The notes: generated by a model from the sequence alone, not told the origin. A stretch of 64,000 nucleotides of DNA from Patescibacteria group bacterium (GCA_034520665.1 JAXHNJ010000001.1:258579-322578); one strand, 5' to 3'. Counted from the stretch's first letter, positions 12,590 through 41,610 are shown. A program made the numbers and translations.

Positions 12590-15337
12590 ATGAGTGAAGA
12601 ATTACTACAAAGAGGACTAACTAAAAAAGGAATTACATTCATAGATTATGAATTTTTTCCGTTACACTCAACGACCTTAAAACAATATAAAAAGTTAAAA
12701 ATAATTCCTAATAAAGATTATGATAAATATGAAATTAGAAAACCTGACGGGCTTTTAGTAGACAGAGGAAATAAATCAAAGCCGAAAGTTGTTACAGTTT
12801 TGGAATACAAAAAACCTTCTGAATTTCAAACAGATAAACAAAAAAGAGAAGCGATTGAACAATGCAATGATTTGTGTCAAGAGCTTGAAGCAAAAATAGG
12901 AATTATTACAGACGGAATTGTTACTTATTGGATAAATCCAAACCACGCAGATAAAAATAACAAATACAAAGATAGAACAACTGGGAAGAAGCGAAGTTTT
13001 TCTTATATCTTAAATGATGATAAGCAAAGATTACAAAAGAAGTTTTTCATTAAAGAGAACGATAAAAAAGATATTTCAAAATTGAATAATGAAACAAGAG
13101 AAACTTACAGATTAGTTAAAAGAATTTTAGAAGAAACAAATAATAAAAATTCTGTTTTGAAAGCAACAGAAAAAACAGACCCAACCCCTCTCGCGAGAAG
13201 TGTTTGGCAAAGTATTTACATAAGCACAAAAGATAATCCAACAGCTTGTCTTTATAATGTTGTTGAGATTTTTATCTTTAAGTTTCTGAGTGATTTAGGA
13301 GTTTTAAAAGGAGTTAATAGTTTTGATTATTTATTGAAACTTTACAAAACAGAAGATAGTAAAACAGTTTTAAAACACTATGCTAAAACTTGCAGAGAAG
13401 AAATAAGAAATTTATTTGAAGCGGGAGATGACGGGACAACAATAATTAATGGAACTATTTTTGTAAATAAAGACGGAAGCCCTGTTTTATCACAAGCGAC
13501 TTTATTTAAAGACACTATTGAAAAATATGCAAAGTTTGGAGATTTAAAAAATATTGACAAGGGATTTAAAACAAAATTGTTCGAAACATTTTTGAAGCAG
13601 AGTAAGGACAAAAGTAAGTTAGGACAATTTTTTACACCGAGAAAAGTTGTTAAGGGAATTGTTGAAATGGCTGATGTGGATAAAGCGGAATTTATATGCG
13701 ACCCATTTTGCGGTGTTGGTGGTTTTCTTTTAGAGCCATTTCAAATATCTCAAAATTTGAAAAATAAATTTATTCCAAAGAATAATGAAATAAATCCGCC
13801 TGTAAAACTTTTAGGATATGATACAGGAAGAGAAGATAACGACGAACAAAAGAGGACTATTATTTTAGCAAAGGCGAATATGCTTATTTATTTGTCTGAT
13901 TTAGTCGAAAAAAATTCTACATTAAACGAGGAATTTTCAAAAATAATAAATAATACTTTCCACTTTTTATCGGATAGTAATCTTGGAACACTAAAAGAAA
14001 CTGAAAGATTTGAAAGAAATGAGGATAAGCCTGATTTAATTATTACCAATCCTCCATATATCACAAGCGGAGTAACTACAATAAGAAAACAGATTGAGGA
14101 AGATGGTTTAACTGATTATTATAAAAATAGTGGAAAGGGAATGGAAGGTTTATGCTTAAAATGGATAATAAAAAATTTGAAAAGAAAAGGACAAGCATTT
14201 ATTGTTTTGCCAGATAGTATTTTTAATGTTTTTGCCAATAAAGTTTTAAGAGATGAAATAAAAAAGAATTGTTATATTAATTGTATTATATCTTTACCCG
14301 CAAAAACTTTCTTTAATACTCCAAAGAAAACTTATGTTTTAGGAATTACAAAAAAAGATTGTGATGAAGATGAATGTGAAAATCTTAAACAGGATTTTCC
14401 TGTATTCACTTATTTAGTTTCTAATATCGGGGAAACATTAGATATTAACCGATTCGAAATTCCTGAAAATGATTTGGATAATGCGAAGAATTTGTTTAAT
14501 CAATTTAAAGGAAGTCCAAATAATTTTCAAACAGATGACTCACGATGTAAATTACAACCTATTGAAAAATTTGAAAATGAGAAATATTGGATAATTGATA
14601 AATGGTGGAGTAAAAAAGAAAAAATAGAAATTGAAATTGAAGAAGAAGATGAAAGTTTAACTATTGATGAATTTAAAGATCAAATTGAAAAAACAAAGGA
14701 AAAATTAGGAGAATTAGAATGGGTGGCAGATAAAACAAAAGAGAGAAAATATAAAACCAAAATGATGTATGTAACGGATGATAAGATAAATAAAAATAGG
14801 AAAGAAGAAGGAATTTTTGAAGCAGAAAAAGGAAATGCAAAATACACAAAAAAATATATGCACGACCATAAAGGTGAGTTTCCTGTTTATTCTTCTCAAA
14901 CTTCTAATTTAGGCGAGATAGGAAGCATAGACACCTATGATTATGAAGAAGAATGTTTTACTTGGACAACCGATGGAACTTATGTTGGAACTGTTTTTTA
15001 TAGAAATGGTAAGTTTTCAATAACCACTCATTGCGGAATTTTAAGAGTTAAACCAGAATACAAAGATAAAGTTGATTTTGAATATTTGAATTTTATCTTA
15101 AATCAAACACTCCCTAATTATAAATTAGGTGAAGGTTCTAATAAAAGATTAGGGACTGAAAGAATGAAGGAAATTCAAATAGAAATCCCAATAAACAAAA
15201 ACGGAGAATTTGACTTAGATAAACAAAAAGAAATTGCTGAAAAGTATAAGAAAATAGAAGAAATCAAGGAAAAACTTAAAGACAATTATGAAAAGATGAT
15301 AAATTCAAAAGTTCAGATTATTGAAGCAGAAGAATAA
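12590..15337 (+). CDS. Type IIG (MmeI-like) single-chain restriction-modification enzyme: N-terminal PD-(D/E)xK nuclease, gamma-class N6-adenine methyltransferase, C-terminal target-recognition region
   Basis: N-terminal KPDGLLVD...VLEYKK matches PD...ExK. Methyltransferase motif I FFTPRKVV...DPFCGVGGFL. Motif IV ITNPPY. The 915-aa length matches MmeI architecture. Confidence 0.7.
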   Translation: MSEELLQRGLTKKGITFIDYEFFPLHSTTLKQYKKLKIIPNKDYDKYEIRKPDGLLVDRGNKSKPKVVTVLEYKKPSEFQTDKQKREAIEQCNDLCQELEAKIGIITDGIVTYWINPNHADKNNKYKDRTTGKKRSFSYILNDDKQRLQKKFFIKENDKKDISKLNNETRETYRLVKRILEETNNKNSVLKATEKTDPTPLARSVWQSIYISTKDNPTACLYNVVEIFIFKFLSDLGVLKGVNSFDYLLKLYKTEDSKTVLKHYAKTCREEIRNLFEAGDDGTTIINGTIFVNKDGSPVLSQATLFKDTIEKYAKFGDLKNIDKGFKTKLFETFLKQSKDKSKLGQFFTPRKVVKGIVEMADVDKAEFICDPFCGVGGFLLEPFQISQNLKNKFIPKNNEINPPVKLLGYDTGREDNDEQKRTIILAKANMLIYLSDLVEKNSTLNEEFSKIINNTFHFLSDSNLGTLKETERFERNEDKPDLIITNPPYITSGVTTIRKQIEEDGLTDYYKNSGKGMEGLCLKWIIKNLKRKGQAFIVLPDSIFNVFANKVLRDEIKKNCYINCIISLPAKTFFNTPKKTYVLGITKKDCDEDECENLKQDFPVFTYLVSNIGETLDINRFEIPENDLDNAKNLFNQFKGSPNNFQTDDSRCKLQPIEKFENEKYWIIDKWWSKKEKIEIEIEEEDESLTIDEFKDQIEKTKEKLGELEWVADKTKERKYKTKMMYVTDDKINKNRKEEGIFEAEKGNAKYTKKYMHDHKGEFPVYSSQTSNLGEIGSIDTYDYEEECFTWTTDGTYVGTVFYRNGKFSITTHCGILRVKPEYKDKVDFEYLNFILNQTLPNYKLGEGSNKRLGTERMKEIQIEIPINKNGEFDLDKQKEIAEKYKKIEEIKEKLKDNYEKMINSKVQIIEAEE

Positions 15338-15625: not shown

Positions 15626-16258
15626 ATGATCCTAAAAATATTATACAATAATAGGGCTAAAGAAGGTTTTAAAGAAGGTTGGGGATTTTCTTGCTTGATT
15701 GAATCTATTAAGGAAAATAAGAAAATCTTGTTTGACACTGGGGCTGACTTTGAAACTCTTAGTTTTAACGCTCAAAAACTAGGGGTAAATTTTAAAAATA
15801 TTGACAAGGTAGTTATTTCCCATGACCATGATGACCACACCGGCGGCTTGGCAGGAGTTTTAAAGGAAAATAATAAGGTAAAAGTTATCTGGCCGAAAAA
15901 TGAAAATAGTTTTAGAATTATTAGCGGTATTTTTTCAACCGGCTCTTTGAAAGCAGCCATAGACTTAAAAGAGCAGTCTTTGTTTTTGGCAACAAAGAAA
16001 GGTTTAGTCATTATAGTCGGTTGTTCTCATCCCGGAGTGGATAAAATTCTTCAAAGAGTAAAAGAGGTTAGGTCTTTAAAAAATAATAAAAAGATTTACG
16101 CTATTATTGGTGGTTTTCACGGCTTTAATAAATTAGATGAATTAGAAGGAATTGAAGTTATTGGCGCTTGCCATTGTACGTCACATAAACAAGAAATTAA
16201 GAAGAAATTTCCTGATCAGTTTAAAAAAATAAGAGCCGGTGATATAATAAAATTATAA
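15626..16258 (+). CDS. metallo-beta-lactamase-fold hydrolase
   Basis: HxHxDH motif (ISHDHDDHTGG), and downstream His and Asp residues (GFHG). Confidence 0.6.
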   Translation: MILKILYNNRAKEGFKEGWGFSCLIESIKENKKILFDTGADFETLSFNAQKLGVNFKNIDKVVISHDHDDHTGGLAGVLKENNKVKVIWPKNENSFRIISGIFSTGSLKAAIDLKEQSLFLATKKGLVIIVGCSHPGVDKILQRVKEVRSLKNNKKIYAIIGGFHGFNKLDELEGIEVIGACHCTSHKQEIKKKFPDQFKKIRAGDIIKL

Positions 16259-16370
16259 AAATAAATAATATATTTATGCCCGGCCAGTGGCTCAAGATTT
16301 GCCTTTTAAGAAAATGGAAAGAAAAGGGCCAGCTTTATAAAAATATTTTACCCAATGGAGAAAAAATAAA

Positions 16371-17099
16371 ATGCCTCAATTAAGTACCTTTACCTGGATA
16401 GCTATATTTGCCATTGGCTCAGCCGTGGTCAATGCTTTAGGTATTTACGCTATCTATAAAAATAAAAGATGGGCTGAGAAAACTAAGGCTTATTTAATGT
16501 GTTTTGCCGCCGGAGTTTTGATTTCTGTGCCTTTAATGCTGGCCTTTCCCGAGGCTGTGAATAAGAATTTCTACGCTGGCTTTGCCGCTTTGGCTGGTTT
16601 TTTGTTTATGTTTTTTAGCAATAAAGTAATTAAGGACCGGACCAAGCAGAAAACTTTGGCTTTTGGCATCACAGCCGCTGAAGGCATTGGTATTCACTCT
16701 TTTGTTGACGGGGTTATTTATACGGTCACTTTTTCGGTCAGTATTTTAGTCGGTTTTGTCTCAGGCTTGGGCTTGGTTATTCATGAATTTGCTGAAGGGG
16801 TAATTATTTTTTCCGTGCTTATAAAAGGGGGAGTGGCTAAAAAAAAGGCTGCTTTTTATGCTTTGTTAATATCGGCGCTAACTACCCCCTTAGGGGCCTT
16901 TGTTGCTTATCCTATTGTTAGTCGGTTAAATGACTCAATTTTAGGCCTTACTTTAGGCTTTATGGTCGGGGTTTTAATTTATATATCGGCGGCTCATCTT
17001 TTGCCAGAAGCCAGAGAGCATGAGAAAGTACACTCTTTTTGGGCCTTTTTAGTTGGTGTGGTTTTGGCTTTGTTTATTGTTTTTACAAAAATGGTTTAA
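16371..17099 (+). CDS. ZIP family metal cation transporter (ZupT-like)
   Basis: Eight-TM protein with HSFVDGV and HEFAEGV motifs, matching the ZIP signature H-x-x-x-E/D-G. Confidence 0.6.
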   Translation: MPQLSTFTWIAIFAIGSAVVNALGIYAIYKNKRWAEKTKAYLMCFAAGVLISVPLMLAFPEAVNKNFYAGFAALAGFLFMFFSNKVIKDRTKQKTLAFGITAAEGIGIHSFVDGVIYTVTFSVSILVGFVSGLGLVIHEFAEGVIIFSVLIKGGVAKKKAAFYALLISALTTPLGAFVAYPIVSRLNDSILGLTLGFMVGVLIYISAAHLLPEAREHEKVHSFWAFLVGVVLALFIVFTKMV

Positions 17100-17182: not shown

Positions 17183-19918
17183 ATGCCAATATTACACAAA
17201 AAAAGAATAGGATTAGGGTTCACTATGTTAATTATAGTTTTTCTATTTATCTTACTTAGTCAGAGCTTATCTTTAATCAGTGACTGGCTTTGGTTTTCCT
17301 CGGAAGGCTTTTTCACGGTTTTTTCTACTATTATTAAAACCAAAGTCTGGTTGGGGATTGCCAGCGGGCTGATTTTCTTTAGTCTTTTGAGTTTGAATTT
17401 TTATATTGCTTATCGTTTAAGCCGGGATTCTTCTTATGTATCAAGGATTAATTTTTTTAGTAAATTTGACTTGAGTAAACTCGGTTTGCGTATTTTACTG
17501 GGCCTCTCTTTAATTATCAGTACATTTGTCGGTCTGGTAGTTTCTGCTAGCTGGCTAAGTGTTTTAAAATATTTTCAAGGGGTTAGCTTTAATATAACCG
17601 ATCCGATTTTTAGCCGTGATATTTCTTTTTATTTCTTTTCCTTGCCTTTTATTAAAATTATTTTAGGTTTTTTGTTTTGGCTGGTTATTCTTTCCTTGAT
17701 TGGCGCCGCCCTGCAATACATCAGCCGGGGCCTTTTGAATATAAGCCAAAAAAGTTTTACCGTGACTAAAAAAGCCAAGGCTCATTTAAGTTTTTTAATA
17801 TTTTTAATTTTTTCTTTGATAGCCGCTCGTATTTATTATGTTAGTATGACAGACCTTCTATATAAGTCGGCCGAGCTTTTTACGGGTGGTAGTTATACAG
17901 ATATCACGGCCAGACTGCCCTTGCTTTGGGTTTTGTTCGGTTTGTCTTTATTTTGTGGACTAGTGGTTTTGTTAAATATATTTTTCCGCTGGCGCCGGTT
18001 TACCACTACAGTTATAGTTTTATTTTTAGCGGTTGGTATTTTAGGGGGGATGATTTATCCGCCTTTGGTCCAGCGGCTGGTGGTTTTACCTAATGAAATA
18101 GCTAAGGAAGAGCCTTATATAAAAAGAAATATTGAGGCCACCCAAAAAGCTTTTGCTTTGGATCGGGTGGTGGAAAGAGATTTATCCGGCGACAGCCAAC
18201 TGACTTATGATGATATTAAAAATAATGAAATGGTAATTAAAAATATTCGCCTTTGGGAAAGAGAGCCCTTGCTTGATACTCTGGGCCAGGTTCAGGAGAT
18301 CAGAACTTATTATGACTTTGTTTCAGTGGATAATGATCGCTACACAATTGACGGTGAATATCGCCAGACTATGATTTCTCCGAGAGAGCTCAACTCAAAC
18401 AGCGTCCCTTCAGATACATTTATTAATCAGCGCTTAGCCTATACTCATGGCTATGGGGCTGCTTTAACTCCAGTCAATGAAGTAACCGAAGAAGGATTGC
18501 CCCAGTTGTTTGTAAAAGATATTCCGCCGCAATCAAGCGTTGATTCTCTAAAAATAAAAAGGCCAGAAGTTTATTTTGGTGAGTTGACCAATAGCTATGT
18601 GTTTGCTAATACTGAAGCTCAGGAATTTGACTATCCCAGCGGCGAGGAAAATGTTTATGCTGATTATCAGGGTGCCGGCGGAGTGAGAGTGGATTCATTT
18701 TGGAAAAAAGCTCTTTTTGCCGCTAATTTTCGTTCGCTAAAAATTCTTTTATCAGATGATATTAATCAGGAAAGCCGAGTGCTTTACCATCGTAATATCA
18801 AAGAAAGAGTAAAAAAAGTAGCTCCTTTTTTAATGCTTGATTCAGACCCTTATATTGTAATTGATGATGAGGGCCGCTTAAAATGGATTTATGACACTTA
18901 TACTCATTCAGATAATTATCCTTACGCTCAGATGATGAATGTTCGCCAAGAAGGAAGTAGTGATTTTCCGACTTATAATAGTTTTAATTATATTCGTAAC
19001 GCGGTGAAAGTAGTCATTGACGCCTACGACGGCTCGATGAAGTTTTATATTGCTGACGCCAAGGATCCTTTAATAAAAACCTATGAAAAAATATTTCCGC
19101 GTTTATTTAAATCCATGGATCAAATGCCCGAAGGCTTAAAAGCCCATCTGCGCTATCCTGAAGATATTTTCAAGTTTCAAACCGAGCTTTATTCCGTTTA
19201 TCATATGGAAGAGCCCCAAATATTTTATAATAAGGAAGATAAGTGGGAAATTCCGCGTCTGGGCCAAAGCAGTCCGGACGACCCGATGATGCGTCATATT
19301 ATCACTAAATTACCGGAAGAAGAAAAAGAAGAATTTATCTTAATGTTGCCCTTTACTCCCAAAAACAAAGACAATATGTCTTCCTGGATGGTCGCTCGCT
19401 CAGACGGTGATCATTATGGTGAATTGGTAGTTTACCGTTTTCCCAAGCAAAAGTTAGTTTTTGGGCCTTCGCAAATTGTTAACCGTATCAATCAGGATAC
19501 TGAGATTTCCCAGCAGATATCGCTTTGGGACCAGCGAGGATCCGAAGTGATTCAGGGTAACCTTTTAGTTATTCCCATTGAAGAGTCTATTCTTTATGTT
19601 CGTCCGCTTTATATTAGAGCGGCCGGCGGCCAGATTCCCGAGCTTAAGCAAGTGATTGTGGCTTATGAAAAAAAGATTGTCATGAACCAGAATTTATCCA
19701 CGGCTCTAAAAGAAATTTTTACCGGGGAAGCAGAGAGTGAGCCGGCTGTTTCCGAAAGTACCGCGGAAACTGAAGAAACCACTACTTCAAATGAAGAATT
19801 AATTAACCAGGCTAATCAATACTACAGGGCCGCCTTGGAAGCCCAGAAACAGGGCGACTGGACAGCTTATGGCCAGCAGATTGAAAAGCTGGGCCAGGTT
19901 TTGTCCGAATTGGAATAA
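17183..19918 (+). CDS. UPF0182 family large membrane protein
   Basis: About 910 aa. N-terminal cluster of about 7 TM helices followed by a large soluble domain. The conserved NIRLWE-type segment is recognised from memory, which is weak evidence. Confidence 0.5.
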   Translation: MPILHKKRIGLGFTMLIIVFLFILLSQSLSLISDWLWFSSEGFFTVFSTIIKTKVWLGIASGLIFFSLLSLNFYIAYRLSRDSSYVSRINFFSKFDLSKLGLRILLGLSLIISTFVGLVVSASWLSVLKYFQGVSFNITDPIFSRDISFYFFSLPFIKIILGFLFWLVILSLIGAALQYISRGLLNISQKSFTVTKKAKAHLSFLIFLIFSLIAARIYYVSMTDLLYKSAELFTGGSYTDITARLPLLWVLFGLSLFCGLVVLLNIFFRWRRFTTTVIVLFLAVGILGGMIYPPLVQRLVVLPNEIAKEEPYIKRNIEATQKAFALDRVVERDLSGDSQLTYDDIKNNEMVIKNIRLWEREPLLDTLGQVQEIRTYYDFVSVDNDRYTIDGEYRQTMISPRELNSNSVPSDTFINQRLAYTHGYGAALTPVNEVTEEGLPQLFVKDIPPQSSVDSLKIKRPEVYFGELTNSYVFANTEAQEFDYPSGEENVYADYQGAGGVRVDSFWKKALFAANFRSLKILLSDDINQESRVLYHRNIKERVKKVAPFLMLDSDPYIVIDDEGRLKWIYDTYTHSDNYPYAQMMNVRQEGSSDFPTYNSFNYIRNAVKVVIDAYDGSMKFYIADAKDPLIKTYEKIFPRLFKSMDQMPEGLKAHLRYPEDIFKFQTELYSVYHMEEPQIFYNKEDKWEIPRLGQSSPDDPMMRHIITKLPEEEKEEFILMLPFTPKNKDNMSSWMVARSDGDHYGELVVYRFPKQKLVFGPSQIVNRINQDTEISQQISLWDQRGSEVIQGNLLVIPIEESILYVRPLYIRAAGGQIPELKQVIVAYEKKIVMNQNLSTALKEIFTGEAESEPAVSESTAETEETTTSNEELINQANQYYRAALEAQKQGDWTAYGQQIEKLGQVLSELE

Positions 19919-20043
19919 CAAAATAATTTTAACTTGACTTAATTTTAAACTTGTATTAAGATATTAATACGGTGGCTTCCTCAAAAAAAGATTATTTCTT
20001 TTGAGGGAGTTTTTATTTTTGTGATAAATTAATAAATTATATT

Positions 20044-20766
20044 ATGATAAATAAGAAAAACAGACCGCCTATGTATAGTTACTGCGATTATCGTTGTGAA
20101 AAATGCTGGTATTCTTGGTATAAAAAATATTGTCCCATTTATAAAAAAGACAAAAAAAGGGTTATTAAACATAAATTAGGAGGGGAGGATCCTTATGATC
20201 TAAAAAACATTTTTAAGGATATAAAAGAAGATTTTAAAAAATCTAAAAATTTATTATACAAAAATGCTAAGAAATGGGAAATTAATTTAAATAAAAAAGA
20301 TACTGTTAAGCAAATTCCAAAACCGAATTCGAATCATTTAAAATTATATTATAAAACAAAGAAATATTTTAATTTGGTTCATAATTATTTTGAAGAATGG
20401 GAAGATAAAATTATTAAGCCAAAATTAGCAGAGGAAATCGGGAATATATCTTGTTACCATTCTTTAATAGCAGTAAAATTATTTCGGACTTTGAATAGTT
20501 TATGGGAATCTAGGTTTGAGAATGAAGGAGAAAATGAAATTAGTTTAAAAGATGCTTATTATTCCGGAGAGATTGTGTTGAGAGGGATAAATATTTCCAT
20601 TAATTCCTGGAAGGAGATTTATAAGGTAATTAAAGATGATAGAATTATTGAATTTCTAGGTAGATTAAAGGCAATTGAAAAAGAAATAAAAGATAAATTT
20701 AAAATTAAAAGGATTTTAAGTTGTGAAGAAATGTATTTATCTTTGGAAAAATATTTTAATCATTAA
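20044..20766 (+). CDS. hypothetical Lys-rich protein with N-terminal Cys cluster C-x3-C-x2-C-x8-C
   Basis: YCDYRCEKCWYSWYKKYC, then KLGGEDP. Very AT-rich. First gene of a 3-gene unit with overlapping ends. Confidence 0.4.
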   Translation: MINKKNRPPMYSYCDYRCEKCWYSWYKKYCPIYKKDKKRVIKHKLGGEDPYDLKNIFKDIKEDFKKSKNLLYKNAKKWEINLNKKDTVKQIPKPNSNHLKLYYKTKKYFNLVHNYFEEWEDKIIKPKLAEEIGNISCYHSLIAVKLFRTLNSLWESRFENEGENEISLKDAYYSGEIVLRGINISINSWKEIYKVIKDDRIIEFLGRLKAIEKEIKDKFKIKRILSCEEMYLSLEKYFNH

Positions 20767-20776
20767 TTTGAAACTT

Positions 20777-21013
20777 ATGAAAAAATCAAAAAAAATTGAA
20801 AAAGATAAAGCAAATCACCATGATGGATATTTTGATGATTGTTCCATTTGCCAGGCCATGAAAAAAGCAGGGATAAAAATGAGAGATATTTCTGATGATG
20901 ATTTTTATGCTACTGAAGTAAAACCTGAAAATTTAAAGGAAATTAAAAAAGCTTTTAAAAAAGCTCAAGATAAAGGGGCTATAGTAGGGGGTGAGTGGTT
21001 TGAAGAAAAATAA
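20777..21013 (+). CDS. hypothetical small protein (78 aa) with CxxC
   Basis: Internal ATG at 20777 avoids overlap with the upstream gene. DDCSICQ motif. Confidence 0.35.
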   Translation: MKKSKKIEKDKANHHDGYFDDCSICQAMKKAGIKMRDISDDDFYATEVKPENLKEIKKAFKKAQDKGAIVGGEWFEEK

Positions 21014-21317
21014 TAAAATAAAAATTAATTGGTTGACTCGACTGTCGTTAAAATTTTGGCCAATGATGTGGATGAAGAGATTGGTACGCAAAGAAGGAAT
21101 TAACTCAGAGTATTTTGAAAAAGCTCATAACCTTTTTTCAAAAGTTGAACGCATTGACTTTTTTCCTCTTTCTTCCGGTTTAAGAGGTTTTATAATTGTT
21201 ATGAATCAAAGGACAGCCCTTTACTTTTATCAGGAAGATGATCATTTTATTTATGACGGCTATGAAGTAGGCCCTTATGAAAAAGGGAAAGTCACGATTT
21301 TTGATAAAATTAAGTAG
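20991..21317 (+). CDS. hypothetical protein (108 aa)
   Basis: Overlaps the upstream stop codon; no motif recognised. Confidence 0.35.
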   Translation: MSGLKKNNKIKINWLTRLSLKFWPMMWMKRLVRKEGINSEYFEKAHNLFSKVERIDFFPLSSGLRGFIIVMNQRTALYFYQEDDHFIYDGYEVGPYEKGKVTIFDKIK

Positions 21318-21421
21318 TTATATAATTCTTATTTTATATTAAAAATCTGCTTATATTTTTATTGACTTATTTTTTAATTTATTTTATGCTAATATCAGTA
21401 TTAATTCAGTAAATTAGCAAT

Positions 21422-22018
21422 ATGGCTAAATTAATGAATTGGCCTTATTTTAGTCAAAAATTAGACCAAAAAAAGATAAAAATATTCTCTCCCTTTGATT
21501 TAAAACGGTTATTTGGCGTGTCTGAAACCTCAATCAGATTTTTTTTGCATCGCTACACAAAAAAAGGCTATATAAAAAAATTAAAAAGGGGTTTGTATTG
21601 TTTGTCTAATCAACCGCCTAATGATTATTACTTAGCTAATAAACTATATGAACCTTCTTATATTTCTTTTGAGCAGGCTTTAAGCTATTATCATATAATA
21701 CCAGAAACTGTTTATACCATTACGTCAGCCACAAGTAAAGCAACAAGGGAATTTGAATGTTTAGGTAAAAGTTTTTATTATCATCGAGTAAAAAAATCAT
21801 TATTTTTTGGTTATAAACAGAAAATATTTTCTAACCAGATAATTTTAATGGCAAGAGCCGAAAAAGCTTTTGTGGACTATTTATATTTTGTTTCACTCAA
21901 AAAGAAAAAAATGCTGGATCGTTTTGACAAAAATAAAATTAATAAAGATAAAGTAATGAAGTTAGCTAGAGTTTATAAAAATAAAAAAATCAAAGAATTA
22001 ATTATTAAATATTTATGA
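21422..22018 (+). CDS. AbiEi-like antitoxin/transcriptional regulator (type IV toxin-antitoxin, COG5340-like)
   Basis: N-terminal winged-helix-like segment (FSPFDLKRLFGVSETSIRFFLHRYTKKGYIKKLKRGLY). Stop overlaps the start of the downstream nucleotidyltransferase (ATGA). Confidence 0.55.
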   Translation: MAKLMNWPYFSQKLDQKKIKIFSPFDLKRLFGVSETSIRFFLHRYTKKGYIKKLKRGLYCLSNQPPNDYYLANKLYEPSYISFEQALSYYHIIPETVYTITSATSKATREFECLGKSFYYHRVKKSLFFGYKQKIFSNQIILMARAEKAFVDYLYFVSLKKKKMLDRFDKNKINKDKVMKLARVYKNKKIKELIIKYL

Positions 22019-22743
22019 TAGATTATTCTAGTCTTCAGAATTTAGCCACCGAATACAAAACTACTAATCAAAATGCAGCTAGAGAATATTGCCAGCATAT
22101 TTTTTTGTCGAATCTTTATAAATTAAACTTAAGTGGGGTAGAGAATTTATTATTTAAAGGTGGCACAGCCTTGAAAATAGTCTATCAAAGTCCTAGATTT
22201 TCTGAAGATCTTGATTTCTCCTCATTTAGTTTGGATAAAAAAAATATTGAAGAAATATTTATTAATGTATTAGCGGAAATTGAGAAAAGCGGTTTTCAAA
22301 CAAAATTAACTGAAGCTAAAAAAACTAGCGGTGGATATTTAGGCAAGGCGTTTTTTTTATTTCTGGATTTTAATTTGGAAATAATGATTCAAGTACATTT
22401 TAAAAAGGAAGAAAAAATTAATGGTGATTTTCATCTAATTACCAGCGATTATTTACCAGCCTATAATTTATTAGTTTTACCCGAGAATATTTTGGTTAAT
22501 GAAAAAATAAAAGCAACCATTACACGCGGAAAACCCAGAGATTTTTATGACGTTTATTTTATCTTAAGAAAAAATTTATTAATTCCTGAAAATAAAGAAA
22601 ACCTTAAAAAGGTCTTGAACAGTTTAGAAAATTCCAAAATTAATTTTAAACAAGAATTAGGAATTTTTTTACCCAAGGATCAGCAGCAGATTATTGGTAA
22701 TTTTGAAAATGTTTTAAAAGCTGAAATAAAAAGACATTTGTAA
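22015..22743 (+). CDS. AbiEii/AbiGii family nucleotidyltransferase toxin (DUF1814)
   Basis: FKGGTALKIVYQSPRFSEDLDFS signature (GG[TS]AL ... RFSEDIDF). Confidence 0.7.
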   Translation: MIDYSSLQNLATEYKTTNQNAAREYCQHIFLSNLYKLNLSGVENLLFKGGTALKIVYQSPRFSEDLDFSSFSLDKKNIEEIFINVLAEIEKSGFQTKLTEAKKTSGGYLGKAFFLFLDFNLEIMIQVHFKKEEKINGDFHLITSDYLPAYNLLVLPENILVNEKIKATITRGKPRDFYDVYFILRKNLLIPENKENLKKVLNSLENSKINFKQELGIFLPKDQQQIIGNFENVLKAEIKRHL

Positions 22744-22897
22744 ATTTTATTTTTCTAATATTTTAAAAACTAGATAATATTTAGTGGAATTAAAGCGTTT
22801 GAAGATAGGCAAGGTTTTTTTAGGAGGGGCAAAGGTTTTAGGTAAGGCTTGGAAATGACTTCTCGTCATTTTGAGGTATTTTTGTTATAATATATTT

Positions 22898-24772
22898 ATG
22901 AAAAAATACTTATTATTGTCAGTTTTAATACTTTCATTTTTAATACCAGGTGGGGCTGGCCAGGCTCAGGAAAAGTCCTGGTTTTTTAATAAATGGGATG
23001 TCGGCATTCAAGTTAATCAGGACGCCAGTATTATGGTTCAGGAGGGTTTAACTTATAATTTTACCGGTGATTTTTCCTATATAAAAAGAAGATTACCTAA
23101 AACCAAAGGCATAAAATATGATAATATCAGTGTTTTAGAAACTGATGGCAGCCGTTTATCTGAAGACAAAGTAGAGATTGAAGAAACCTCTTCGGAGGTA
23201 ATTGTTACGGTACATTTTAATTTATCAAACACTACTCACACCTGGATTTTTGAATACACAGCTTATGGCGCGATTGGTTTTTTTGAAGATTATGATGAGC
23301 TTTACTGGAATGTAGTGGCTTTTGATCGGGAAGTGGAAATTAAAAAATCTCAAGCCACAGTTTATTTACCCCAGGAAATTGATCCTGATAATATTAAACA
23401 AAAAATTTATGTTGGGCGGTCTGATTCTAAGGAGGAAACACTGGATTACACGGCTGGTAGTAGGGAAATTAATTTTTTTGCCACTGATATTGCTCCTTAT
23501 GAAAATTTTACTATAGTTTTGGGCTGGCCTAAAAATATAGTAAAATATCCCGGTTATCTTAATATTACTTCCGAGCCAGAAAGCTCTAATATTTATATAG
23601 ACGGCCAGGCCTTGGCCAATAAAACGCCAGCTAATTTATTAATTGGCTATGATATTAATGCCGGTGAAAAGGATATTGCCGTAAAAAAATTCGGTCATAC
23701 CACAGCTAGCCAAAAAGTGAATATTGAAAAAGGAAAGGATAAAAAATTAGATTTTAATTTGGAAGCTAAAGCCTGGTATTTTTATGGCAAAAAAGCCTTT
23801 TATTTTTTAATGTATTTATATTTTGCTTCACCGGTTTTTGTCGGCCTTTACCTTTATCTTAAATGGAAAAAACATGGTAAAGATCCCAAAAGCAAAGGCA
23901 CGGTCATAGCCCAGTATGAGCCGCCGGACCATACCAGGCCGGCTGAGATGGGCACTTTAATTGATGAAAAAGCGGATTTGCATGATATTACCGCTACTAT
24001 CATTGACCTGGCCTTTCAGGGCTATATTCGTATTCACGAGGAAGAGGACAAATCACTATTTGGTAAAAAAACTGATTATACTTTTGAAAAAAGAAAAGAC
24101 TTTTTTGGCGATCAGACTCTTAAAGAATATGAACGCATGATTTTATCAAATTTATTTGGCTCAAAAAAAGAAGTTAAGTTGTCTGATTTAAAAAACAAAT
24201 TTTATAAAATGCTCAAAAAAATAAAATCTTCTCTTTATAAAGATGTCACGGCTTTGGGCTATTTTGAGAGAAATCCGGAAACAGTACGGCATAAATATCT
24301 GGTGGTTGGGGTGGTTTTTGTGGCCGCCGGCTGGATTTTATTTTTAGTGCCGGCAATTTGGGGTATACTGATAATTATTTTTGGCTTGGTTATGCCTAAG
24401 AAAACTAAAAAAGGCGTCCAGGCCAAGTGGCACGCTGATGGTTTTAAAAAGTATTTACACACAGCTGAAAGATTTCGCTTGGGCCAATTAACCCCAGAGA
24501 CTTTTGAAAAATATTTATCCTACGCCATGGTCTTTAAAGTAGAAAAGCAGTGGGCCCAGCGCTTTAAAGATATCTATAATCAGCCGCCGGATTGGTATGT
24601 TGGCCGTGGTGGAATAGAAGCTTTTGCGGTCACTAGTTTTGCCGCTAACCTTTCGGACAGTTTTAATTCAGTGGTGGCCAGTAATTTATCTTCTTCACCT
24701 TCTTCATCCTCTGGTTTTTCCGGCGGTTCGGCTGGCGGCGGCGGCGGTGGCGGCGGTGCCAGTGCTGGTTAG
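22898..24772 (+). CDS. DUF2207-like membrane protein with Gly-rich C-terminal tail
   Basis: Signal peptide, large extracytoplasmic domain, TM pairs, and the YEPPDHTRPAEMGTLIDEKADLHDITATIIDLAFQGYIRI segment. Ends GGSAGGGGGGGGASAG. Confidence 0.55.
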   Translation: MKKYLLLSVLILSFLIPGGAGQAQEKSWFFNKWDVGIQVNQDASIMVQEGLTYNFTGDFSYIKRRLPKTKGIKYDNISVLETDGSRLSEDKVEIEETSSEVIVTVHFNLSNTTHTWIFEYTAYGAIGFFEDYDELYWNVVAFDREVEIKKSQATVYLPQEIDPDNIKQKIYVGRSDSKEETLDYTAGSREINFFATDIAPYENFTIVLGWPKNIVKYPGYLNITSEPESSNIYIDGQALANKTPANLLIGYDINAGEKDIAVKKFGHTTASQKVNIEKGKDKKLDFNLEAKAWYFYGKKAFYFLMYLYFASPVFVGLYLYLKWKKHGKDPKSKGTVIAQYEPPDHTRPAEMGTLIDEKADLHDITATIIDLAFQGYIRIHEEEDKSLFGKKTDYTFEKRKDFFGDQTLKEYERMILSNLFGSKKEVKLSDLKNKFYKMLKKIKSSLYKDVTALGYFERNPETVRHKYLVVGVVFVAAGWILFLVPAIWGILIIIFGLVMPKKTKKGVQAKWHADGFKKYLHTAERFRLGQLTPETFEKYLSYAMVFKVEKQWAQRFKDIYNQPPDWYVGRGGIEAFAVTSFAANLSDSFNSVVASNLSSSPSSSSGFSGGSAGGGGGGGGASAG

Positions 24773-26129: not shown

Positions 26130-27650
26130 ATGAATAAAAAAATAGCTATTATCTCTATTAGCGTTTTAATTATCTTGGTCGGCCTGATTATGGGCGGACT
26201 TTTTATTTTTCGGGGCAAAAATATACCGGTTTTAGGCCGAGTAGTGACTATTCCTTTGGTGGAAAAAGCCTCGGCTCAAGTGATGGATCAGATGATTAAT
26301 AAAATGAAGTCTATTGAATCCGGCTATCTAGCCTGGCAAATGGGGCTGAATATGAAAGCGGCTGAAGAGGACGACTCGTCGGCTGATAACGAAAATATTG
26401 GTCTTAAGCTGGGTTCAACTCCTTCAGATGTTGTATTAAATCTTAACCTTGGCTTTGACTTTCAGGGTGGGCAGGAAGTCCTAGCCCAAAAAGGACGCTT
26501 TGATTTAAAGGGCGGCTTAAACTATAATGGCATGGATTATAAGCTTGGCTTTGAAAGTATTTATCGGCCGGATAAAATTTATTTTCAGGCTACCCAGATT
26601 CCAGCCATTCCATTTTTTGATTTATCCAGTTTAGCTAATCAGTGGTATTATGAAGATTATGAGGATTTATCGGATGATGTGCCTTATGTAGATAATATTG
26701 ATGAAGTCAATCAAGTGGTTAACGATTTTAAGGATTCACTGGATAAACATAATTTTATTGAAGTTAAAAAAAGAATGGCTGATGAAAAAATTGATGATGT
26801 ACCTTGTTTTCATTATTTAGTTAATATTGACCCGGAAAAGCTAAAACTTTTTATAACCGAATCGGAAGATTTACTGAATAATCTTAACGAAAATGTAAAC
26901 TCACAGGCATTATTTGATGAAATGGATGAAACTATTAATAAATATACAGACATGATTAATCAAAAGGGGATTGAGGTTTGGATTGGCCAAAATGATATGA
27001 TGATGAGAAAAATAGCCGTTGATATAAGATATCAGGAGAAAGAAGCTTTAGCCAGTTATCAATATGCGGACATAAATATGAGTTTAACTTTGTCTAATGT
27101 TAACCAGCCAATTTCAGTTACTATACCCGAAGGAGCCAAACCCTTGGAAGAGTTAGAAAAGGCAGTTAATGACATGACTGGTATTTTTAATTCTAATACT
27201 TCATTGCCCAGTACTAGCCTTAATTTAAACTCAAACACAAATTCTTCTTATAATTTTAACTCTAATATTTCTCTTAATGAAAATTTGAATAATAATTTAA
27301 ACCAAAATACAAATACGAATATTAATATTAATACTAATTTAAATCTTAACCAGGACAGTGATAACGACGGCCTGACCGATATGGAGGAAATTATTTACGG
27401 CACTGACTCAAATGATCCGGACACTGACGGTGACGGCTATCAGGACGGAGCCGAAGTTGATTTAGGCTATGATCCCAACGGAGCCGGAAAACTGGATACA
27501 GATGCGGATGGGCTTTTGGACAATGAAGAGGAAATTTACGGTACTGATAAAAATAATAAAGACACAGATGGTGACGGCTATCTAGACGGAGAAGAGGTTT
27601 TGAATGGTTTTAACCCCAAAGGCGAGGGTAAGCTTTTAACTATTAATTAA
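26130..27650 (+). CDS. secreted protein with Asn-rich low-complexity linker and four thrombospondin-type-3-like Ca-binding repeats
   Basis: N-terminal signal anchor. Repeats DSDNDGLTDMEE, DTDGDGYQDGAEV, DTDADGLLDNEEE, DTDGDGYLDGEEV. Confidence 0.5.
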   Translation: MNKKIAIISISVLIILVGLIMGGLFIFRGKNIPVLGRVVTIPLVEKASAQVMDQMINKMKSIESGYLAWQMGLNMKAAEEDDSSADNENIGLKLGSTPSDVVLNLNLGFDFQGGQEVLAQKGRFDLKGGLNYNGMDYKLGFESIYRPDKIYFQATQIPAIPFFDLSSLANQWYYEDYEDLSDDVPYVDNIDEVNQVVNDFKDSLDKHNFIEVKKRMADEKIDDVPCFHYLVNIDPEKLKLFITESEDLLNNLNENVNSQALFDEMDETINKYTDMINQKGIEVWIGQNDMMMRKIAVDIRYQEKEALASYQYADINMSLTLSNVNQPISVTIPEGAKPLEELEKAVNDMTGIFNSNTSLPSTSLNLNSNTNSSYNFNSNISLNENLNNNLNQNTNTNININTNLNLNQDSDNDGLTDMEEIIYGTDSNDPDTDGDGYQDGAEVDLGYDPNGAGKLDTDADGLLDNEEEIYGTDKNNKDTDGDGYLDGEEVLNGFNPKGEGKLLTIN

Positions 27651-38829: not shown

Positions 38830-38935
38830 TTCGTTTCGGTATTAAGTACAGCTCATCTTAAGTTTTTACATCTGTCTGCCTGTACTTAGTTACCGAAAAA
38901 CTTGTTTGTTCTTTGAAAGAAAGAAGGTAACAAAA

Positions 38936-39697
38936 ATGTTAGGCAAGATTTCGGTTTTTACGGTATTAATTCTTTTTGCCAGTTTCTTTTTCCTGCCTGC
39001 CTGCGATACCTTTGATGGGGATTCCGAGAATCCAGTGGGGGTAAATGAGGAAGAAGGTTCTTCTGAAAATCCAAAACCAGAAACCCTGGATTTTCCGGCA
39101 AGCCAATGGAATGAAAATGTAACTCATTCTGATGGTGACTCCATTACTGTTGAAGGGTCAAAAATGGCTGAGCAAAGAAAAATGCTTACTGGAGTCGGCC
39201 AGTATAATTCTTTTCCTTGGAGTTGGCACCTGCCTTTCAGAGGTTGTTGGTATATGACCTGTGGTTATGGTTGTGGCTATCACCAAGGTAATGATTATTA
39301 TTCAACAGATTGGGCTGTAGGAGGAAATCCTTGCGGCTATGAAGTTCTGGCTCCCGGGGCTGGTTGGGTGCTTTGGGCTGGATATAAATCCGGTTATGGA
39401 TATACGGTTTTAATTGAAGCTGGTCCAACAGGCCAGAGTAACGGAAATCGTTATATCTATCGTGTAGCCCACTTGAGTCGCATTGAAGTAGTGCCTGGCT
39501 GGTGGCTTCCCCGAGGATGGAGAATTGGAAGACATGGAAATACTGGAAATTCTACAAATTGTCATATTCATTGGACTGTTTATCGCGGACGTTATGCTGG
39601 GTATGGCAATGTTTATGGGTCCAGTTTTCCGCCCAGTTGGAGTTCAGGAGTTGATGGCTTTAATGGAAATTATGGAAGGTGGTGTTCAAAACAGTAG
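38936..39697 (+). CDS. M23 family metallopeptidase lipoprotein (LytM/lysostaphin-like peptidoglycan hydrolase)
   Basis: Lipobox LPAC. HxxxD motif (YHQGNDY). HxH motif in GNTGNSTNCHIHWTV. Confidence 0.7.
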   Translation: MLGKISVFTVLILFASFFFLPACDTFDGDSENPVGVNEEEGSSENPKPETLDFPASQWNENVTHSDGDSITVEGSKMAEQRKMLTGVGQYNSFPWSWHLPFRGCWYMTCGYGCGYHQGNDYYSTDWAVGGNPCGYEVLAPGAGWVLWAGYKSGYGYTVLIEAGPTGQSNGNRYIYRVAHLSRIEVVPGWWLPRGWRIGRHGNTGNSTNCHIHWTVYRGRYAGYGNVYGSSFPPSWSSGVDGFNGNYGRWCSKQ

Positions 39698-40448: not shown

Positions 40449-40641
40449 ATATATGATTCTTCGGATATTATAAAAAGGAGGTGGCCTATGAAACAAAATA
40501 GGTTAACACGAGCCATGATAAACATGGCCGATTAATTCATTTCGGTATTAAGTACAGCTCATCTTAAGTTTTTACATCTGTCTGCCTGTATTTAGTTACC
40601 GAAAAACTTGTTTGTTCTTTGAAAGAAAGAAGGTAACTAAA

Positions 40642-40824
40642 ATGTTAGGCAAGATTTCGGTTTTTACGGTATTAATTCTTTTTGCCAGTTTCTTTTTCCT
40701 GCCTGCCTGCGATACCTTTGATGGCGATTCGGAGAATCCGGTGGGGGTGACTTCACAGGACACGGAGATTTCCCATCAAGACGATCCTGGAATCAGTGAT
40801 TCTGGGGAAGAGACGGGAGAATAA
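40642..40824 (+). CDS. truncated paralog of the M23 lipoprotein: same signal peptide and lipobox, then a short acidic tail
   Basis: First about 45 aa identical to 38936..; shares the upstream leader-peptide/hairpin module. Confidence 0.4.
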   Translation: MLGKISVFTVLILFASFFFLPACDTFDGDSENPVGVTSQDTEISHQDDPGISDSGEETGE

Positions 40825-40860: not shown

Positions 40861-41610
40861 ATGCCTTATCCCCATCTTAAATTTCGTAAGAATGCTAAAA
40901 AAGATTTTGAGAGTCTTTGTCTTTTTGTGGATGAAGCGAAATATAGTGAGGGTAGAAACTTAAACTGGGCTGTATTTGAAAAATATCCTCACTTAAAAAA
41001 ATATTTTAATATAAATAAAGACTATAAAATAAAGAATCAGAAAATGTTGCAAAATTTTATTAAACAGAATTATCAAAGTAGAGGCAAGGGTATGGATAAA
41101 GCTTTGAAAAAACATAAAAGAAACTGGCAAAAAGTAGCCCCTAATTTTTTCTTTTTGGTTGATGAGATTTTTAAAAAACGCGAATGGCCTCAAGGAAAAT
41201 ATATTGCTTATGGTACCATCTGGCATCTCTATCCTCGTTATTTAGAAGATAAAACTTTCCAAATTCCTTTTTGGCATTCTAAAGCTAAATATATCTTAGT
41301 AGTAATAGCTCATGAATTGTTGCATTTTATGTTTTATGATTATTTTTATAAGAGGTTAGCAAAATATCATTCTCGTCGATATAATTTTTTTGTTTGGCAT
41401 ATTTCTGAAGTTTTTAATAATCTAATACAAAATTCATCAGCCTGGCTGAATTGTTTTAAAATGAGGTCGCTAATTTATCCCCAGCACAAGAAAATCGTAA
41501 ACCATATTAAGTCTACTTTAGACAAAAAAAGTGAATGGAATCTTGATGATTTGGTAGATCTAATTATTAAGGAAGTAAAAAAAGAATTTAATAAAAAAAA
41601 CATAAATTAG
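40861..41610 (+). CDS. hypothetical protein with HExxH motif (possible zinc metallopeptidase)
   Basis: VIAHELLHFMFYD. Confidence 0.3.
   Translation: MPYPHLKFRKNAKKDFESLCLFVDEAKYSEGRNLNWAVFEKYPHLKKYFNINKDYKIKNQKMLQNFIKQNYQSRGKGMDKALKKHKRNWQKVAPNFFFLVDEIFKKREWPQGKYIAYGTIWHLYPRYLEDKTFQIPFWHSKAKYILVVIAHELLHFMFYDYFYKRLAKYHSRRYNFFVWHISEVFNNLIQNSSAWLNCFKMRSLIYPQHKKIVNHIKSTLDKKSEWNLDDLVDLIIKEVKKEFNKKNIN

Follow-up and report, generated by a model that had tools for sequence, protein, structure and literature searches.

Between a UPF0182 gene and a gene for a DUF2207/PEGA membrane protein, a 64,000-nucleotide stretch of DNA from a Patescibacteria group bacterium (GCA_034520665.1, JAXHNJ010000001.1:258579-322578; the whole stretch is called the window below) carries an AT-rich islet of five open reading frames (ORFs), all on the plus strand. 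The last two encode AbiEi and AbiEii, a canonical type IV toxin-antitoxin (TA) pair and a routine example of one, with toxin and antitoxin roles predicted from sequence. The first three, which we call O1, O2, and O3, are genuine, unclassified genes under purifying selection. The reading that we favor, with about even confidence, is that the islet combines the routine AbiE pair with three orphan genes that are independent of it, are linked facultatively, and recur as a trio in Patescibacteria. The AT-rich, variable site that follows UPF0182 would then hold two units that can be separated: AbiEi as a winged-helix autorepressor and antitoxin together with AbiEii as a DUF1814 nucleotidyltransferase toxin, expressed from their own promoter; and O1-O2-O3 as an accessory set of three orphan families. 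We consider the two units to be separate because of the terminator hairpin before O1, the abiE promoter, the loss of AbiE in a close relative, and the many homologous loci that have no AbiE.

The close relative is represented by a 3.6-kb metagenome contig (L088, which is the same as L001; hereafter the sister contig) that is colinear with positions 18800-21564 of the window, at 83% nucleotide identity over 2.78 kb. Past the breakpoint at 21564 its sequence is unrelated: only about the first 48 codons of abiEi are left, and there is no abiEii. The abiE promoter block and O1-O3 are intact, and the ratio of non-synonymous to synonymous substitution rates (dN/dS) for O1-O3 is 0.11-0.19. Because the sister contig retains O1-O3 even though AbiE has been lost, the trio is not an obligate accessory of AbiE. 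The junction downstream of O3 thus varies between two close relatives.

The terminator-like hairpin 3' of UPF0182 (-16.7 kcal/mol; z = -2.84 relative to shuffled sequences) coincides with the inverted repeat I15 and is conserved in the sister contig. It is best read as the UPF0182 terminator, setting that core gene apart from O1; a riboswitch or leader upstream of O1 was rejected for this reason and because there was no hit in Rfam. In the 104-nt spacer between O3 and abiEi, a promoter scan found a promoter-like TTGACT-17-TATGCT, followed by a near-invariant 37-nt block that reaches the ATG of AbiEi. The block is shared with the sister contig, while the 5' part of the spacer has diverged, and this difference is consistent with a promoter or operator. 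The only inverted repeats seen nearby are weak and AT-rich. The abiE pair is consistent, then, with transcription from a putative promoter of its own.

Beyond these two relatives, most loci with homologues of O1, O2, or O3 have no AbiE. In the 80 O1 loci that come from other genomes, neither AbiE nor O2 nor O3 is ever an immediate neighbor, and just two of these loci have AbiE within 3 kb. (In these two, a Cloacimonadota metagenome-assembled genome, or MAG, at L017 2820-5546 and a KSB1 MAG at L033 3506-7712, AbiE lies 0.5-3 kb from the O1 homologue.) An earlier note on this DNA had proposed that the trio might be a new accessory module of the Abi system. As an obligate arrangement, this fails on the hairpin, the separate abiE promoter block, the sister contig, and the AbiE-less loci. 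The trio may instead have a looser link to TA-rich variable spots, and its adjacency to AbiE would mainly reflect shared residence in such spots rather than mechanistic dependence.

The AbiE pair, which the earlier note had already identified as such, is new but unremarkable within its known family. The two genes form a bicistron on one strand, with the antitoxin gene first and a 4-nt overlap (ATGA); the abiE genes of Streptococcus agalactiae have the same 4-nt overlap (PMC3985639). AbiEi scores 31.4 bits against Pfam's AbiEi_4 (cut-off 25) and matches PADLOC's AbiEi with E = 5.9e-43, covering residues 21-194 of 198; its match to the NCBIfam equivalog TAA_AbiEi is sub-threshold (E = 9.4e-11; 41.7 versus a cut-off of 150). 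It has the layout of an N-terminal winged helix followed by a C-terminal domain. AbiEii, a DUF1814 nucleotidyltransferase, matches the AbiEii models of Pfam (PF08843, E = 9.3e-23) and PADLOC (E = 7e-26). It contains all four nucleotidyltransferase motifs as defined by Dy et al. 2014 (PMC3985639): motif I (hG[GS]) at G49 G50, motif II (R..DhD) at R61 and D65-L-D67, motif III (K..A...R) at K164/K166-A167...R171, and motif IV (+DxxD) at R175-D-F-Y-D179. The pair thus resembles the AbiE systems of S. agalactiae and Lactococcus (PMC3985639) in its overlapping bicistron, in the winged helix of AbiEi, and in motifs I-IV of a DUF1814 AbiEii, with G49 and G50 at the same positions. Its conserved promoter-proximal block could fit autoregulation. 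It differs in that its host is a Patescibacterium. O1-O3 are part of no described AbiE system.

We conclude that O1-O3 are genuine because they have homologues and because dN/dS relative to the sister contig is 0.19 for O1, 0.18 for O2, and 0.11 for O3 (for comparison, it is 0.05 for UPF0182). None of the three matches any curated family in Pfam, NCBIfam, PADLOC, or PHROGs, yet each belongs to a family of homologues, so the earlier note was right that they lack a recognisable family and they are conserved nonetheless. Searches of PDB sequences with the family profiles were empty as well.

O1 belongs to the broadest of the three families. An exhaustive profile search gave 288 cluster representatives at E <= 1e-3 (32 of them at E <= 1e-10), and a pattern scan of GTDB species genomes found relatives in at least 275 genomes, among them genomes of WOR-3, Cloacimonadota, Bacteroidota, Desulfobacterota, Acidobacteriota, Planctomycetota, Omnitrophota, Ignavibacteria, and Verrucomicrobiota, and a few from Patescibacteria. 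All of the relatives that have names are "hypothetical protein" in their sources. The C-x3-C-x2-C cluster in the earlier note is present, as C14-x3-C18-x2-C21, and a fourth cysteine, C30, must be added to it. Across 60 aligned members, the only invariant residues after the initiator methionine are these four cysteines and K145; N12, D15, E19, and R148 are kept in at least 90% of members; and the consensus is YNYCDRWCERC-x5-7-C. Some relatives keep the four cysteines with other spacing (C-x6-C-x4-C-x2-C in L172 and C-x7-C-x5-C-x2-C in L035). The AlphaFold2 (AF2) model of O1 is confident (predicted local distance difference test, or pLDDT, of 90.9; predicted template modelling score, or pTM, of 0.86) and has eight helices and no strands. 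Comparing the model to PDB with Foldseek gave only generic helical bundles (E > 0.2).

Because the four cysteines are invariant, are kept despite changes in their spacing, and sit in an all-alpha model, we infer that O1 is a cytoplasmic all-alpha protein with a Cys4 metal site in an N-terminal knuckle, probably Zn or an Fe-S cluster that is fully ligated by the four cysteines. Such a site would be structural or sensing, and not a catalytic cluster of the radical S-adenosylmethionine (radical-SAM) type. Small helical, cysteine-rich proteins that sense metals or redox state include the WhiB-like [4Fe-4S] proteins and the zinc-binding anti-sigma (ZAS) domains, with the motif H-x3-C-x2-C. Like these, O1 has a compact four-ligand cluster that includes C-x2-C on an alpha-helical, cytoplasmic body, and it has no catalytic signature. 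Unlike these, it is larger (about 240 amino acids); no sequence or profile similarity was detected beyond a marginal match to WhiB in one relative (E = 0.006); and its homologues have no sigma factor or other conserved partner gene beside them. More broadly, the 80 loci from other genomes have no conserved O1 neighbor, just lineage-specific synteny such as a HIT-family gene in Pyrinomonadaceae. Some O1 homologues are fused to N-terminal extensions, in which we found no Pfam domain. No consistent Pfam or NCBIfam model emerged from 60 relatives, and in the literature we found no relevant description of a Cys4 helical family like O1.

The O2 family (163 homologues at E <= 0.01, of 52-116 amino acids) is from Patescibacteria wherever the source gives a name, plus one Pacearchaeota label. 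These lysine-rich mini-proteins have the signature FDDCP(I/V)CQAMK ... ELKEAFKKAK..GAIVGGEWFE, in which the CxxC part can also be written FDDC(P/S)ICQAMK and GAIVGGEWFE is the C-terminal motif. F19, C22, C25, and K29 are invariant across the family alignment. The contexts of O2 are varied: beside VapBC (L168), within the trio (L172), in an island with KAP-NTPase and MmeI-type genes (L175), and after an Xre helix-turn-helix (HTH) gene and before a Macro domain gene (L183). One member is fused to a SEC-C zinc motif. In another locus (L181 2662-9021), O2 lies between maturase-like radical-SAM genes (BATS/HypC-fused) and the small/large subunit pair of a NiFe-hydrogenase with HypA. This context and the SEC-C fusion fit a metal-related role. 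O2 might bind metal or carry out thiol-disulfide exchange, possibly as a dimer or with O1.

O3 has homologues in 35 protein clusters and 105 metagenome loci, which are from Patescibacteria wherever the source names them. Its C-terminal half is very conserved, with 16 invariant columns (RGF...TALYFYQDGDHFIYDG.E.G.Y..G.VTIFD). In the AF2 model (pLDDT 84), three helices at the N-terminus precede a five-stranded C-terminal domain, and Foldseek found no match to this fold in PDB or BFVD (E > 0.19 overall and E > 0.6 for all of PDB). NCBI begins this protein at a downstream start, for a length of 84 amino acids. Substitutions in the O3 frame upstream of that start are synonymous, which implies that a longer form is translated, and most homologues cover this N-terminal part. 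For the longer form, TTG at 21000 is a more likely start than GTG at 20991; the TTG is preceded by AGGGGG in the window and by AGGAGG in the sister contig. (Two O3 homologues, P0036 and P0037, have an N-terminal "DDCPY" that resembles the "DDCPIC" of O2. The O2 profile gives E = 0.02-0.24 for them, which is not significant, and we rejected an O2-O3 fusion as probably a chance likeness in the "DDCP" string.)

The neighbors of O3 point to a DNA-binding partner. Among 66 unique O3 loci, 18 (about 27%) have an ArsR/HTH_5-type winged-helix gene of 86-93 amino acids within 3 kb; in about 12 it is the immediate same-strand neighbor, before or after O3. Because of these 18 loci, we propose that O3 could be an alpha/beta adaptor that acts with a small DNA-binding protein, which elsewhere would be the adjacent ArsR- or MarR-type winged-helix protein; there is no ArsR-type partner within this window. 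The repeated same-strand pairing in either order is reminiscent of ArsR/SmtB proteins with small partners, but the ArsR-like neighbors of O3 have no obvious metal-binding Cys/His motif, as judged by eye. Another frequent neighbor is typA/BipA, which is immediately upstream of O3 in 10-15 of the 66 loci. Band_7, VanY, DUF559/MTES_1575, MarR, Fic, and NYN genes are rarer.

Six-frame searches of all fetched loci with hidden Markov models showed that the three families also occur together elsewhere. The order O1-O2-O3 is seen in the window and the sister contig. In L163 and L166, O1 and O3 overlap by 4 nt and are followed by an ArsR-type gene. In L172-174 (L172 3640-6114), the order is O3-O2-O1 and the trio is split by a TA pair (PanA-PemK), an HTH_3/SocA_Panacea antitoxin and a PemK toxin, between O2 and O1. 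L006 has O2-ORF6N-O3. The linked copies of O1 are just 26-30% identical to one another, and the linked copies of O3 are 45-55% identical. With O1 so diverged, this is not one recently transferred block; the linkage is old or was repeatedly re-formed, which argues for a functional relationship. So, the suggestion that these genes form a set is supported by its recurrence in other Patescibacteria: O1-O2-O3 is probably a functional set, which at least three other lineages of Patescibacteria also have, with the gene order rearranged. Most loci contain just one of the three families, which implies that the set is facultative. (In L166 4264-4998, and also in L163, the O1 homologue beside O3 is broken by a single in-frame TAA at 4807-4809 of L166. 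Both halves match the O1 profile, and this could be either a recent pseudogene or a split gene.)

We propose that the trio might sense or regulate through thiols or metals, together with small DNA-binding partners. If it is a regulator of this kind, or a modulator of TA systems, then hundreds of hypothetical genes could be annotated and there would be a handle on stress and defence regulation in bacteria of the candidate phyla radiation (CPR). In CPR bacteria, about half of all genes are unannotated and small orphan genes are common. Here, three orphan families are now delimited by their motifs, distributions, and neighborhoods, with confident models for two of them. We view the trio and the widespread Cys4 family as a candidate for experiments and not as a discovery.

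Several observations weigh against our interpretation. First, AbiE recurs downstream of O3 (in L119 and L121, described below). Second, other TA modules touch the trio, namely PanA-PemK in L172 and VapBC in L168, and Fic, NYN, and DUF433 genes are found beside O3. Together, these contacts are more than naive chance would predict, and they could reflect a functional link rather than co-location. Third, 82 loci have only O1, 82 have only O3, and 8 have only O2, though many of these contigs are short. Fourth, the 10-15 O3 genes that directly follow typA/BipA have no regulator nearby. Finally, no homologue of known biochemistry or structure was found for any of the three proteins, and the proposed metal or thiol role draws on the conservation of the cysteines and on a few contexts.

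The alternative that survives best is a functional tie between TA or Abi modules that are regulated by winged-helix proteins and the trio, or O3 if not the whole trio. O3 would act on its winged-helix neighbor (AbiEi here and an ArsR- or MarR-type protein elsewhere) by binding or modulating it, O1 and O2 would provide a redox or metal input, and the set would tune or trigger abortive infection by AbiE. We consider this possible, if unlikely. The earlier note had suggested checking whether the neighborhood with AbiE recurs, and to some extent it does: in two further lineages, profile searches placed an AbiEi-AbiEii pair downstream of O3 and in the orientation of O3. In L119, a divergent subfamily of AbiE is directly adjacent to O3; in L121, AbiE is 2.1 kb downstream. 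(In L119 1944-6385, fragments of an IS200-like Y1 transposase lie just upstream of O3-AbiEi-AbiEii.) Of the 66 unique O3 loci, 33 have at least 1.5 kb of downstream sequence. With the window and the remnant in the sister contig, the arrangement is present in about three independent lineages among about 34 O3 loci with that much sequence, as a raw count. Coupling would also account for the small winged-helix genes beside O3, for the PanA-PemK pair that the trio brackets and the VapBC pair that O2 abuts, and for AbiE within 3 kb of the O1 homologues in L017 and L033. However, O1-O3 remain under purifying selection in the sister contig without AbiE; abiE has a (putative) promoter of its own; most loci with trio genes have no TA neighbor, and many O3 genes follow typA or sit amid housekeeping genes; and no PADLOC model matches O1-O3.

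A more specific version of coupling is rather unlikely, in our view, and is speculative. O1 as a Cys4 metalloprotein, O2 as a CxxC mini-protein, and O3 as an alpha/beta adaptor docking on winged-helix regulators could form an undescribed sensing module of Patescibacteria. The module would couple redox or metal status, or its perturbation by phage, to TA activation, via AbiEi here and via ArsR-type proteins elsewhere. If this were true, TA-based abortive infection would have a new trigger, or a new accessory layer, in ultra-small bacteria.

It is improbable that O2-O3, or a winged-helix gene with O3, is a small type II-like TA pair with O3 as the effector, O2 or an HTH protein as the neutraliser, and O1 as an occasional third component. 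This would fit the small size (78 and about 105 codons), the overlap, and the patchy distribution of the two genes, and the swapping of partners in both gene orders (O2, ArsR-HTH, or ORF6N beside O3). Promiscuous type II TA pairs such as PanA-PemK are a related case, and the trio is interleaved with PanA-PemK in L172, but O3 resembles none of the known toxins or antitoxins and is often partnerless. The helices-then-beta-sheet layout of O3 loosely recalls RelE/YafQ, but these were noise-level matches in Foldseek, and hhalign of the O3 profile to E. coli RelE gave a probability of 0.1%, so we rejected a RelE/ParE-like toxin. Furthermore, there is no toxin match for O2 or O3 in PADLOC, Pfam, or PHROGs, and pairing is not obligate: O3 lacks O2 in 82 loci and directly follows typA without any small partner in 10-15, and O2 lacks O3 in 8 loci and is often alone.

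The earlier note had also seen, in the cysteines of O1 and a following GGE, the order of a radical-SAM core. This raises the alternative, which we consider very improbable, that O1 is a minimal radical-SAM-like enzyme, for instance a maturase of peptides, and that O2 or O3 is the peptide it modifies. O1 does share the C-x3-C-x2-C spacing of the radical-SAM superfamily (PF04055), and the window's copy has the GGE. O2 has a marginal match to the model of the radical-SAM epimerase YydG (E = 0.089), far below threshold at 12 bits versus a cut-off of 300. In contrast to the superfamily, O1 has a fourth invariant cysteine, which would occupy the iron that binds SAM, so the three-cysteine signature is not present; its fold is all-alpha where the superfamily has a partial TIM barrel, with no sign of a beta/alpha barrel in the confident model; and the spacing of its cysteines varies among relatives. 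The GGE is KGE in the closest relative (74% identical), in the sister genome, and the family consensus at this loop between helices is just G-x-D-P-x-D; no other SAM motif is conserved. O1 has no match to PF04055 or to any radical-SAM model in NCBIfam at E <= 1, and 60 relatives (at E <= 0.1 for Pfam and E <= 0.01 for NCBIfam) yielded a single marginal match, to CofG (E = 0.0037), in one relative. We rejected the radical-SAM reading of O1.

Lastly, that the three upstream ORFs arose by chance, or are pseudogenes in decay, within an AT-rich spacer is hardly credible: they are low in GC and rich in lysine, they have no family assignment, and the O1 relative in L163/L166 has an in-frame stop, but an ORF of 240 codons in DNA of 25% GC, hundreds of homologues with invariant motifs, confident AF2 models of O1 and O3, and dN/dS of 0.11-0.19 rule it out.

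We also found no evidence for the earlier note's other proposal, that the trio is an independent defence or anti-defence unit. Searches of PADLOC-DB v2 with O1, O2, and O3 gave no families at E <= 1, and the three families were not found in IMG/VR, GenBank phages, or PLSDB plasmids. These absences, along with the lack of a BFVD fold match for O3, led us to reject a phage or plasmid origin for the trio. There are no tRNAs and no Rfam hits within the window, and no direct repeats flank the islet beyond AT-rich noise.

The coordinates of the islet and its flanks are in Table 1. ORF calls and GC content agree with the earlier note that five genes at these positions are AT-rich relative to their flanks: GC is 24.5% for O1, 29.5% for O2, 32.1% for O3, 26.0% for AbiEi, and 27.2% for AbiEii, as compared to 38.8% for UPF0182, 37.3% for DUF2207, and 33.6% for the whole window. 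Pfam and PADLOC confirm its identifications of UPF0182, DUF2207, AbiEi, and AbiEii. Identical proteins are in NCBI under the tags U5L76_01440 to U5L76_01450, on a contig of 455,760 bp. The note had described all three trio genes as having overlapping ends, which suggested translational coupling. This holds for O2 and O3, which overlap by 23 nt (with the GTG start) or 14 nt (with the TTG start), as they also do in the sister contig, and coupling is probable for this pair. It does not hold for O1 and O2, which are separated by 10 nt if O2 starts at the ATG at 20777.

Table 1. Features of the islet and its flanks, in window coordinates
Feature	Position	Strand	Details
UPF0182 gene	17183-19918		Upstream flank; PF03699, E = 7e-288
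Intrinsic-terminator-like hairpin with U-run, 3' of UPF0182	19974..20022	+	RNA fold
O1	20044..20766	+	240 aa; Cys C14, C18, C21, C30 at 20083-20133
O2	20777..21013	+	78 aa; C22, C25 at 20840-20851
O3	20991 (GTG) or 21000 (TTG)..21317	+	108 or 105 aa
abiE promoter/operator region (putative)	21362..21421	+	Promoter scan; conservation in sister contig L088
AbiEi	21422..22018	+
Colinearity breakpoint relative to sister contig L088	21564..21565	strandless	blastn and alignment
AbiEii	22015..22743	+
DUF2207/PEGA membrane protein	22871-24772		Downstream flank

The islet is one of three low-GC patches within the window. Another patch (12.1-15.3 kb) contains a plus-strand gene (12590-15337) for a 915-amino-acid protein that combines N6_Mtase and Methylase_S in a single chain, the latter being a type I-like specificity domain. 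This is probably a horizontally-acquired defence gene of the restriction-modification type. The patch with the lowest GC (24.5%, at 40.8-44.5 kb) contains an orphan ORF of 249 amino acids (40861-41610), and it is bordered by a gene for an M23-peptidase lipoprotein (38906-39697, plus strand) and by an ORF of 70 amino acids (40612-40824, plus strand). The proteins from these two bordering genes have an identical 46-amino-acid N-terminus, in the signal/lipobox region, which suggests that the region was duplicated locally or that one copy is truncated. Upstream of UPF0182 on the plus strand (15626-17099) are a metallo-beta-lactamase-like ORF, as read by eye, and a ZIP zinc transporter identified with Pfam. 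Downstream of the islet, also on the plus strand (26130-27650), is a gene for a secreted protein of 506 amino acids that has bacterial TSP3 calcium-binding repeats, according to Pfam.

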